From contig WRDV01000001.1 in NCBI GenBank assembly GCA_009779655.1, positions 1 to 28,926 on the forward strand: a DNA stretch of 28,926 bases, in the 5' to 3' direction. A program made the translations under genes and the position numbers. Position 1 is the stretch's first letter. Each line of letters begins with the position of its first letter. Shown one piece after another: positions 3,807 to 5,279 of this stretch. This DNA is from Dehalococcoidia bacterium (GTDB lineage: Bacteria; Chloroflexota; Dehalococcoidia; Dehalococcoidales; UBA1222). The notes under the pieces were generated by a model. The model was given only the letters and a program-made list of their open reading frames with translations, had not been told where the DNA came from and searched no databases.

Positions 3807-5279
3807 CTATGGAATAGCCGAACGTGTTACGCGGCGATAAGGCGGACGTCCACCCGCGCCGCGCGTAACAGGCGCTCGTTGCCCAAAACGACGACTGCCG
3901 GTCAGGCGGACGCTTTCAGTCTTGGGCGATTCTTCGTCGTAATTGAATCCTGCCAGCATACGCCGCTCAACTTTTCTACCAAGCATACGCTCAATAATGC
4001 GCACCATCTCAGCGTCCTCAGGGCATACAAACGTATATGCTTCACCGGTATTGTCAATACGCCCGGTGCGGCCGACACGGTGAGTATACGCGTCGGCGGT
4101 ATCCGGCATATCGTAGTTTATAACATGCGAAATGCGCAGCACATCAATGCCGCGGGATGCGATATCCGTAGCCACCAGTATTTTCACTTTTCCGCGGCGA
4201 AAACTATCGATAGCCGTCTGTCTGCGCGACTGCGCCAGATTGCCTTGCAATGAGGTAACTTTGAAGCCCGCGTTTTTAAGCTGTTCGGCTACGCGCTCAG
4301 CGCGGTGCTTAGTGCGCGTAAACACCACAACAGACTCTGTTTCTATTTGCCGCAGCAAATCCATCAATAAGGCGCTCTTAAGGTGCTGTTTAACCGGATA
4401 AAATACCTGCGTCACACTGCTTGCAGGCGCCACATGGCCTACTTGTACAGTCACCGGATTATGTAAATAAGCCTGAACTAGCTGACGCACATCATCCGGC
4501 ATAGTCGCAGAAAACAGCAGTATTTGTTTTTTCTGCGGTAGATAACGCAGGATATTATTGATATCAGGGAGAAAACCCATATCAAACATGCGGTCGGCCT
4601 CATCAATAACCAGCATCTCAACGCTGGAAAGATCAATACTGCCCTGCCAAACATGATCCAGTAGCCGTCCCGGACAAGCCACCACGATATCTACGCCGTC
4701 GCGTAAGCTGCGCATCTGCGGCGTCATGCCAACTCCGCCGTAAAGCGATATTGCACGAATACCCGTGCGCCTCCCGAGCGACGCAATGGACTCATTTGTC
4801 TGCTCTGCCAGCTCGCGCGTGGGAGAAATCACCAGTCCGCGTATATTGCCATTTCTATGCGCTTCCAAACGCTGCAGCATAGGCAATACAAAAGCCGCGG
4901 TCTTGCCGGTTCCTGTCTGTGCCAGCCCAATAATATCACTGCCTGCTAAGGCATGCGGAATAGCCTTGCTTTGAATAAGCGTAGGCTTAACATAGCCTGA
5001 AAGCCGCACCCCGGCAAACACCTTAGGACTAAGCGCAAATGACTCAAAATCCACAACATTCTCCGCCGGTGTTTCAATATCGCAAGGCGCGTCAGGCGCA
5101 CTTGTATGAATTGCATCGCTTGCCAAACAAATACCTTGACTGCGTTTATCGCGGCATCCGGGGCAGCGTTTCGGCTCATTACGGAAACCGCGCGAATGGA
5201 AGAATTTTTGATCGGAAGCACTGAAAATAAAACCTGTTCCACAATCAGAACACATTAACGCTTTATCTTGAAAAATCAA
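3807..5279 (-). CDS. DEAD-box RNA helicase (RhlE/DeaD-like) with N-terminal CxxC-x25-CxxC zinc ribbon
   Basis: Q motif (PTLIQ), AQTGTGKT, PTRELAEQ, CPGRLLD, DEAD, SAT, HRVGRTGR; basic Arg/Gly tail; N-terminal CSDC...NEPKRCPGC resembles PF13451. TTG start after AGAGAGAG. Confidence 0.95.
   Translation of the reverse strand: MIFQDKALMCSDCGTGFIFSASDQKFFHSRGFRNEPKRCPGCRDKRSQGICLASDAIHTSAPDAPCDIETPAENVVDFESFALSPKVFAGVRLSGYVKPTLIQSKAIPHALAGSDIIGLAQTGTGKTAAFVLPMLQRLEAHRNGNIRGLVISPTRELAEQTNESIASLGRRTGIRAISLYGGVGMTPQMRSLRDGVDIVVACPGRLLDHVWQGSIDLSSVEMLVIDEADRMFDMGFLPDINNILRYLPQKKQILLFSATMPDDVRQLVQAYLHNPVTVQVGHVAPASSVTQVFYPVKQHLKSALLMDLLRQIETESVVVFTRTKHRAERVAEQLKNAGFKVTSLQGNLAQSRRQTAIDSFRRGKVKILVATDIASRGIDVLRISHVINYDMPDTADAYTHRVGRTGRIDNTGEAYTFVCPEDAEMVRIIERMLGRKVERRMLAGFNYDEESPKTESVRLTGSRRFGQRAPVTRGAGGRPPYRRVTRSAIP

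Follow-up and report, generated by a model that had tools for sequence, protein, structure and literature searches.

An N-terminal zf_Tbcl zinc finger on a RhlE-like DEAD-box helicase in one family of Dehalococcoidia: a candidate RNA- or ribosome-targeting module

The window analysed here is a stretch of 28,926 nucleotides from a Dehalococcoidia bacterium (contig WRDV01000001.1, positions 1 to 28,926, of GenBank assembly GCA_009779655.1, a source of 0.9 Mb that is 75% complete), and it carries on its minus strand a single open frame (3807..5279) for a protein of 490 amino acids, started by TTG, in which a zf_Tbcl zinc finger, a linker, a DEAD-box helicase core and a basic tail follow one another. 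The finger (PF13451) occupies residues 4-48 (5136..5270, minus strand), where Pfam gives it 65.7 bits against a cut-off of 24 and a six-frame search of the genome 70.3 bits; its putative cysteine ligands are C10 (5250-5252), C13 (5241-5243), C39 (5163-5165) and C42 (5154-5156). An earlier reading of the letters alone (the original prediction) had placed a CxxC-x25-CxxC motif at the start of the helicase, and these four residues confirm it; the segment that it had singled out, 5142-5279, encodes residues 1-46. It had also described a Pro/Ala/Asp linker, which we find at residues 49-75 (5055..5135, minus strand) as a Pro/Ala/Asp/Glu-rich, flexible segment that is predicted to be disordered, and whose length and sequence differ between homologues. 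Beyond the linker lie the helicase core, with motifs Q, I, Ia, II, III and VI (residues 76-440; 3960..5054, minus strand), and an Arg/Gly/Pro-rich, basic C-terminal tail for which disorder is again predicted (residues 457-490; 3810..3911, minus strand).

Within the core, Pfam recognises DEAD at residues 101-266 (177.3 bits; cut-off 26) and Helicase_C at residues 301-408 (111.4 bits; cut-off 23.5), and the motifs can be read directly in the translation as Q (F..GY..PT.IQ), I (AQTGTGKT), Ia (PTRELA), II (DEAD), III (SAT) and VI (HRVGRTGR), at positions that are invariant across an alignment of 46 sequences (A4). The product is an RhlE-like DEAD-box RNA helicase, with a predicted RNA-dependent ATPase and duplex-unwinding activity; its scores stay below the NCBIfam equivalog cut-offs for CshA (410 vs 646 bits), RhlE (398 vs 743) and DbpA (381 vs 524). 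At E <= 1e-20 it is the sole DEAD-box gene found in four genomes that have the fusion, two of them from the window's own genus, and a genome from another genus of the same family (G150) has a second such gene.

As to where translation begins, the gene caller's model (P0001, 482 aa) opens at an ATG eight codons 3' of the TTG. Comparison supports the TTG at 5279 rather than this downstream ATG as the start, because a family-wide x-F-Q-D-K N-terminus, conserved in 18 fused homologues, precedes the ATG. All nine of the fused genes with DNA sequence (the window's own, L005-L011 and L016) start with TTG, and none of them contains a stop or a frameshift. The Shine-Dalgarno (SD) sequence is weakened in fused genes, with GAGAGAGG in place of GGAGG; genes for free-standing zf_Tbcl proteins (free zf genes, below) are unlike them in having an ATG or GTG start behind GGAGG.

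One such free gene lies in the same window (8391..8684, minus strand) and encodes a net basic protein of 97 amino acids, which joins a zf_Tbcl finger (residues 3-49) to a second finger of the CxxC-x17-CxxC type (zf_Tbcl_2, PF23477/TIGR04272; residues 60-96; 71 bits); the second finger was likewise found in the third two-finger gene copy of the genome, on contig C55, and was not found in the fused protein by Pfam or NCBIfam. The original prediction had called the fused finger a paralogue of the first finger of this protein, from 27 of 44 residues matched by hand, and BLASTP agrees, with 27 of 45 identical (60%) and an E-value of 1e-20 for the single comparison. Nine positions, C10, C13, F17, Q24, G31, P36, C39, C42 and R43, are invariant in all 18 fusions, and the invariants of the free family (C9, C12, F16, Q23, R37, C38 and C41) correspond to C10, C13, F17, Q24, R38, C39 and C42 of the fused protein. 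From such resemblance, and from the leader family that both genes share (below), the fused finger appears to have been copied from the widespread two-finger proteins.

These proteins, named in databases 'CxxC-x17-CxxC domain-containing' or 'zinc-ribbon domain containing protein', fall into at least 6786 clusters; over the full length, identity is 73-93% for the 120 best, except for one longer protein, of 153 aa, at 54%. They were found in 353 of 401 genomes of the class and in 95 of 121 genomes of the phylum (each tally containing one unpublished genome, G244 and G599), in 0 of 14 control genomes, and also in Bacillota and Acidobacteriota. Both background premises of the original prediction hold: accessory domains of bacterial DEAD-box proteins are usually C-terminal, and PF13451 has no assigned function, our literature search having found no paper that names the family. 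For small CxxC-x17-CxxC proteins of Methanosarcina mazei, zinc binding has been measured by inductively coupled plasma mass spectrometry (PMC12704099). The cold-shock domain (CSD, PF00313), for its part, was found in 12 of 61 genomes of the class vs 10 of 14 controls, and not in the genome of the window. At about 740.4-741.5 kb of G027:C1, a CSD gene and a zf gene lie some 750 nt apart on the same strand.

An AlphaFold2 model of the full-length fused protein, made from a 46-sequence alignment, gives the finger a predicted local distance difference test score (pLDDT) of 91-96 and shows a confident two-domain core; the linker scores 35-38, with residues 51-72 all below 50 and hence disordered, and the basic tail is disordered from residue 457. 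The finger, built of strands 6-9 and 16-19 and helices 21-29 and 40-47, is not packed against the helicase core. For the free 97-aa protein the model consists of two small modules with a disordered Gly-rich linker between them, and in both modules the first CxxC forms a knuckle at a β-hairpin and a helix begins at the second. The modelled zf_Tbcl fold is that of a treble clef and not the classical two-hairpin zinc ribbon, and on these models the 'zinc ribbon' of the original prediction is corrected; Zn_ribbon_8 reaches 21.4 bits on the free protein, under its cut-off of 34.4. A sequence search of the Protein Data Bank (PDB) with the free protein returned nothing for zf_Tbcl, and only weak LIM-like matches to the second finger (E 1e-3).

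How widely is the fusion spread? About 18 full-length fused protein clusters, 55-78% identical, come from Dehalococcoidia or from metagenomes, and metagenomic clusters with the fusion number about 20. Among 201 genomes from the order, 8 gave a contiguous match through finger, linker and helicase start; they all belong to a single family, in which three of six sampled genera are represented. Genuine as it is, the fusion has a narrow range and is restricted to one lineage. The next-closest helicases, with cores 65-69% identical, begin right at the Q-motif region and have no finger. A quick maximum-likelihood tree built on the helicase cores unites 16 of the fusions in one clade, with a value of 100 in the Shimodaira-Hasegawa-like approximate likelihood ratio test (SH-aLRT), and a single clade of all 18 fusions together with the unfused helicase of one genome of the family (G507), and with it one origin within the family, was not rejected by the approximately unbiased (AU) test (p 0.41).

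Beyond this family, a profile-free search with residues 1-130 as the query against 1.84 billion representatives returned few fusions. One protein of 552 aa from a 65-kb contig (P0152) and a fragment (P0137) carry both fingers N-terminal to the DEAD domain, and in P0166 the finger is degenerate. P0152 and P0166 make up a distant helicase clade (SH-aLRT 100), and when genome contigs were scanned with P0152, 80 of 80 loci matched the helicase part only. In P0122 a finger of the free type, 88% identical to the window's free copy, is followed immediately by the helicase's own Met; its sister in the tree (SH-aLRT 96) is the helicase of G469, a genome in which 169 nt separate a free zf gene from the helicase gene downstream, and P0122 looks like the product of a deletion between such neighbours. 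It comes from one 2.3-kb contig, which may be a chimera, and what speaks for its independence is the different junction rather than the tree, where the AU test likewise does not reject a clade with P0122 added (p 0.18). From these architectures it follows that a zf_Tbcl finger became attached to a DEAD-box helicase on more than one occasion. Further partners of the finger are other fingers, in tandem arrays of two to four, and helix-hairpin-helix domains resembling the C-terminal domain of the RNA-polymerase alpha subunit (alpha-CTD); a metagenomic protein of 316 aa (P0139) has two alpha-CTD-like domains, two zf_Tbcl and one zf_Tbcl_2. Arrays and alpha-CTD partner alike fit nucleic-acid binding. 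Two sets of candidates were set aside: a word-indexed search for longer finger proteins gave only four, three of which are over-called open reading frames (ORFs), and open frames of 340-689 aa around zf matches, seen in seven genomes, are artefacts of stop-free, high-GC sequence rather than fusions.

Turning to the neighbourhood, the free zf gene, rpsU, a 144-aa ORF, bipA and the zf-helicase fusion follow one another in the window, all co-oriented. Directly 3' of the free zf gene is rpsU (ribosomal protein bS21; 8083..8292, minus strand), after which comes a strong terminator-like hairpin of 12 bp (8014-8041, minus strand) that suggests a two-gene zf-rpsU transcript, separate from the genes downstream; directly upstream of the fused gene is bipA/typA, for a translational GTPase (5458..7296, minus strand). 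The ORF in the interval between rpsU and bipA (7480-7914, minus strand) has no Pfam family, and its product is acidic and contains Cys and His. In a related locus (L016) both pairs, zf-rpsU and bipA-fusion, are preserved; other genes lie between them, including at the place of the 144-aa ORF.

Similar associations recur across Chloroflexota. Free zf genes, genes for S21, one or two genes for proteins with an RNA recognition motif (RRM) and a helicase gene form strings at L112/L113 and L114, with RNase J next in L112; a zf-RRM-helicase string is found at L019, and a zf gene stands directly before a helicase gene at L021, L120 and L133 and near rpsU at L131. At L143 (G638:C115), from a different class of the phylum, bipA comes directly after a free two-finger gene, a pair that echoes the bipA-fusion pairing of the window. 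By a rough estimate, a DEAD-box gene is expected as immediate neighbour at well under 1% of loci, and the two cases among the 30 best zf loci, together with the others, represent a clear excess, in genomes that are related to one another. Within a sample of ten genomes, an RRM gene directly follows a free zf gene in five of the five that have one; none was found in the genome of the window (G000, 75% complete), in G478 (91% complete) or in G547. The idea that the finger replaced an RRM partner was rejected, as G150, G454 and G494 have both the fusion and RRM genes.

Finger genes and helicase genes also share a 5' leader. That of the fused gene is about 110 nt long (5274..5390, minus strand) and has the 13-mer GTTCAAGTTTAGG at 5376-5388; that of the free zf gene (8681..8785, minus strand) has it at 8771-8783, and the window contains it at these two leader sites only, where 0.09 occurrences are expected. 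Upstream of the fused gene we read a promoter-like element (5398..5427, minus strand) comprising TTGCGC (5422-5427), an 18-nt spacer and TACAAT (5398-5403), 9 nt before the 13-mer, a layout that recurs in relatives: at many free and fused loci the 13-mer lies 92-109 nt before the start codon and 7-9 nt after a TATAAT-like box. A covariance model (R1) was built from 14 leaders, and both window leaders, which score 85.5 bits (fused gene; E 2e-14) and 65.4 bits (free gene), are among these and so match by construction; across the class, where its independent members come from, it finds 50 sites in 25 of 101 genomes. Of the 28 sites that were examined, 24 are followed by a zf gene and two by the gene of an unfused DEAD-box helicase (L156 in G024:C6, and L178 in G013:C14, which starts with TTG), and the leader would appear to mark a small regulon. 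A search of window positions 5200-8900 against Rfam gave no match.

Aligning 43 leaders reveals two helices that exclude one another, in which a central element, GGAUGACC, pairs either with the leader's 5' end or with GGUCAUCC at the ribosome-binding site. The latter helix, GGAUGAC:GUCAUCC, spans the end of the SD sequence and the spacer to the AUG, and is 92% paired with compensatory changes at five of its seven pairs; the alternative is 91% paired, with four pairs changed on both sides. For the helix at the ribosome-binding site, 0 of 500 shuffled versions reached the observed value on four of five measures. The leader of the window's fused gene keeps five of seven pairs in each helix. Compared over their whole length, the two leaders of the window show no significant local DNA similarity (32 of 1000 shuffles), and their single-sequence folding z-scores are unremarkable, so that it is the 43-sequence alignment, not pairwise similarity or single folding, that supports the leader family. 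Since unfused helicase genes (L156, L178) have the same leader, that of the fused gene could have come from the free zf gene or from the helicase parent. Single-finger free forms of 62-68 aa, with a zf_Tbcl finger and a short polar tail, were seen behind the same leader at L155, L158, L159, L168 and L177, so that the first finger also occurs on its own.

Because fusion, further architectures, gene strings and common leader all join them, we place the zf_Tbcl proteins and the RhlE-like helicase in one RNA module, and with moderate confidence we read the finger as a module on a flexible tether that targets RNA or the ribosome, in a cold-shock-like set of genes for RNA remodelling. The original prediction had already proposed RNA or ribosome targeting, and the same lines of evidence lend that proposal indirect support, binding itself being what we infer from them. 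We suggest the following course of events. The helicase of one Dehalococcoidia family would have gained its N-terminal finger as a copy from the two-finger proteins; this finger may bind nucleic acid or a ribonucleoprotein, presumably with zinc held by its four cysteines, and a 'leash' of about 25 residues would then keep the non-specific core on RNA or small-subunit substrates that free finger proteins also visit, allowing the tethered core to clamp and unwind duplexes nearby, much as in DbpA but from the opposite end of the protein. Together with the helicase gene, the finger genes would form a small co-regulated set, often clustered with rpsU, RRM-protein genes and bipA, whose two-state leader could hide the ribosome-binding site, and the set as a whole may serve as a cold-shock-like or stress RNA-remodelling module, probably acting at or near the small ribosomal subunit.

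We also advance, more tentatively, a broader proposal: that zf_Tbcl/CxxC-x17-CxxC proteins are undescribed, abundant RNA chaperones or ribosome-associated factors which possibly fill a CspA-type role in the mostly CSD-less Chloroflexota, with a DEAD-box helicase, bS21, RRM proteins and BipA as their partners and a two-state leader dedicated to them, and that the fusion reveals this partnership.

Several observations weigh against the targeting role. Binding of RNA, ribosomes or even zinc by zf_Tbcl is a prediction, zinc being known for the other domain only; Foldseek against the PDB gave no informative solved relative (best E 0.28), and exhaustive VIA-align comparison, with a best Z of 3.7, allowed no structural relative to be named. 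The alpha-CTD partner fits DNA as well as RNA. None of the neighbours described above is seen at 26 of the 30 best zf loci or at the P0297 loci, and three sampled loci of close unfused helicases have no zf gene nearby. Two fusions, P0026 and P0028, group with the unfused helicase of G507, in which the finger has apparently been lost. In the fused finger itself the Arg that precedes the third Cys has been partly lost (15 of 18 fusions retain it), and the near-invariant Asn of the family is no longer conserved; between the same two genomes, moreover, fused fingers are 65% identical vs 93% for free fingers. Given this faster evolution and these relaxed positions, the role of the fused finger may have drifted. 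Regulation by cold, finally, is put forward by analogy alone.

It is also conceivable, albeit unlikely, that the finger makes no RNA contact and acts as a protein-protein adaptor, docking the helicase on bS21 or other 30S proteins, on the RRM protein, on RNase J/Y or on itself. Treble-clef fingers often make protein contacts, fusion of neighbouring genes is a classic sign of interacting proteins, rpsU accompanies the free gene in the window, L016, L112 and L114, and RNase J comes after the cluster in L112. The neighbours of zf genes vary, however (S21, RRM, helicase, BipA or none), and what they have in common is RNA; tandem arrays of two to four fingers are more typical of nucleic-acid readers; and the RRM partner was not found in the window genome or in G478, at the completeness given above. 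On the further idea of the original prediction, that the free protein may be a partner or a competitor of the helicase, prediction of a complex between the helicase core (residues 73-456) and the free 97-aa protein scored 0.00, which weighs neither way.

Improbable, in our view, is a finger that regulates the helicase, whether by autoinhibition, by sensing zinc or redox state, or by binding its own leader RNA for feedback on the regulon. One two-state leader on fused, free and unfused helicase genes needs a trans-acting or physical signal, and Cys4 sites can be redox-sensitive, but the finger sits on a disordered linker and is unpacked on the core in the full-length model, nothing here shows that it recognises the leader, and both switch helices are incomplete in the leader of the fused gene of the window.

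Somewhat less probable again is that the fusion is a tolerated accident of deletion between neighbours, adding little function and with its finger slowly decaying. Its narrow range of one family would suit such an origin, as would the TTG start and weak SD of every fused gene and the faster divergence of the fused finger, relaxed at two family-conserved positions. So would an apparent secondary loss: the G507 helicase (L023, G507:C82, 3712-5013, minus strand) begins MNIQDN, where its fused sister P0028 begins MNHQDK, and runs directly into linker-like sequence, which suggests an internal deletion that took out the finger and kept the start, the finger being apparently losable. Set against this are the nine positions, four Cys among them, that stay invariant in 18 fusions of a domain only 50-65% identical, the absence of any stop or frameshift from the nine genes examined, the persistence of the fusion through three genera, and the other DEAD-box fusion architectures found elsewhere.

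We regard it as very improbable that the fusion is an annotation artefact, translated mainly from an internal start into an ordinary helicase with the finger rarely made: GGAG (5061-5064) does stand 6 nt before an in-frame GTG (V76, 5052-5054; together 5052..5064, minus strand) exactly where unfused helicases begin (M-x-F-E-x-F), L011 has an ATG at the equivalent place and the SD at the upstream TTG is weak, but seven of nine fused relatives have no start codon there, the codons of the finger are open and conserved, and promoter and conserved leader lead to the TTG, not to V76.

The interest of the fusion reaches beyond this gene. Proteins with PF13451/PF23477 occur in about 80-90% of the sampled Chloroflexota genomes, often in several copies and with no known function, and the helicase fusion, the further architectures, the operon-like linkage and the shared leader together provide the strongest sequence-derived clue to what this finger family does; the prediction that follows is one of RNA or small-subunit binding, cooperation with a helicase and stress-dependent translation. 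The fusion is also a rare case in bacteria of a DEAD-box protein whose N-terminus bears a folded accessory domain, and this protein is the sole DEAD-box helicase found in its genus, in a small genome. Moderately interesting alone, it gains more as a functional pointer for a very common finger family.

Set beside known systems, the helicase most resembles RhlE/CshA-like proteins, which give it its best family scores and with which it shares intact core motifs and a disordered Arg/Gly-rich C-tail; RhlE is also the JGI name of its close relatives. In E. coli, by contrast, N-terminal extensions of such helicases measure 2-9 aa, where here there are 75 residues with a folded domain. The arrangement of a generic DEAD-box core with a small appended domain, the proposed substrate anchor, is that of DbpA/YxiN, whose RNA-binding domain tethers the protein to hairpin 92 of 23S rRNA whilst the core acts nearby (model in PMC1616957). 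Here, however, the appended domain is N-terminal, is a Cys4 finger rather than RRM-like and has no known target, and as the fused helicase is the sole DEAD-box protein found in its genus and has to serve the entire cell, a general affinity or ribosome tether is argued for, and a narrow, DbpA-like specificity is unlikely.

Relative to the free zf_Tbcl + zf_Tbcl_2 proteins, the fused form keeps the first finger with its common invariants and the leader family, and differs in having lost the conserved Asn, in evolving faster and in having no second finger. In eukaryotes, zinc fingers accompany DEAD-box proteins as the zf-HIT of DDX59, the C-terminal finger of DDX41 and the CCHC knuckles of Vasa. 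There too a finger is appended as an accessory module, yet the finger families are unrelated and the lineages other ones, and homology is not implied. The leader, with two exclusive helices of which one covers the SD-to-AUG region, is reminiscent of the switches in the 5' untranslated regions of csp genes, from which it differs in having no sequence relation to them and no Rfam match.

The cyanobacterial helicases CrhC and CrhR are cold-induced. The cyanobacterial rbp-rpsU cluster has been described as cold-regulated (Sato 1994, as cited in PMC12232666). That cluster has no zinc-finger gene, and a link to temperature in Dehalococcoidia would be by analogy, but the two systems have in common that genes for an RRM protein, S21 and a DEAD-box helicase are linked.

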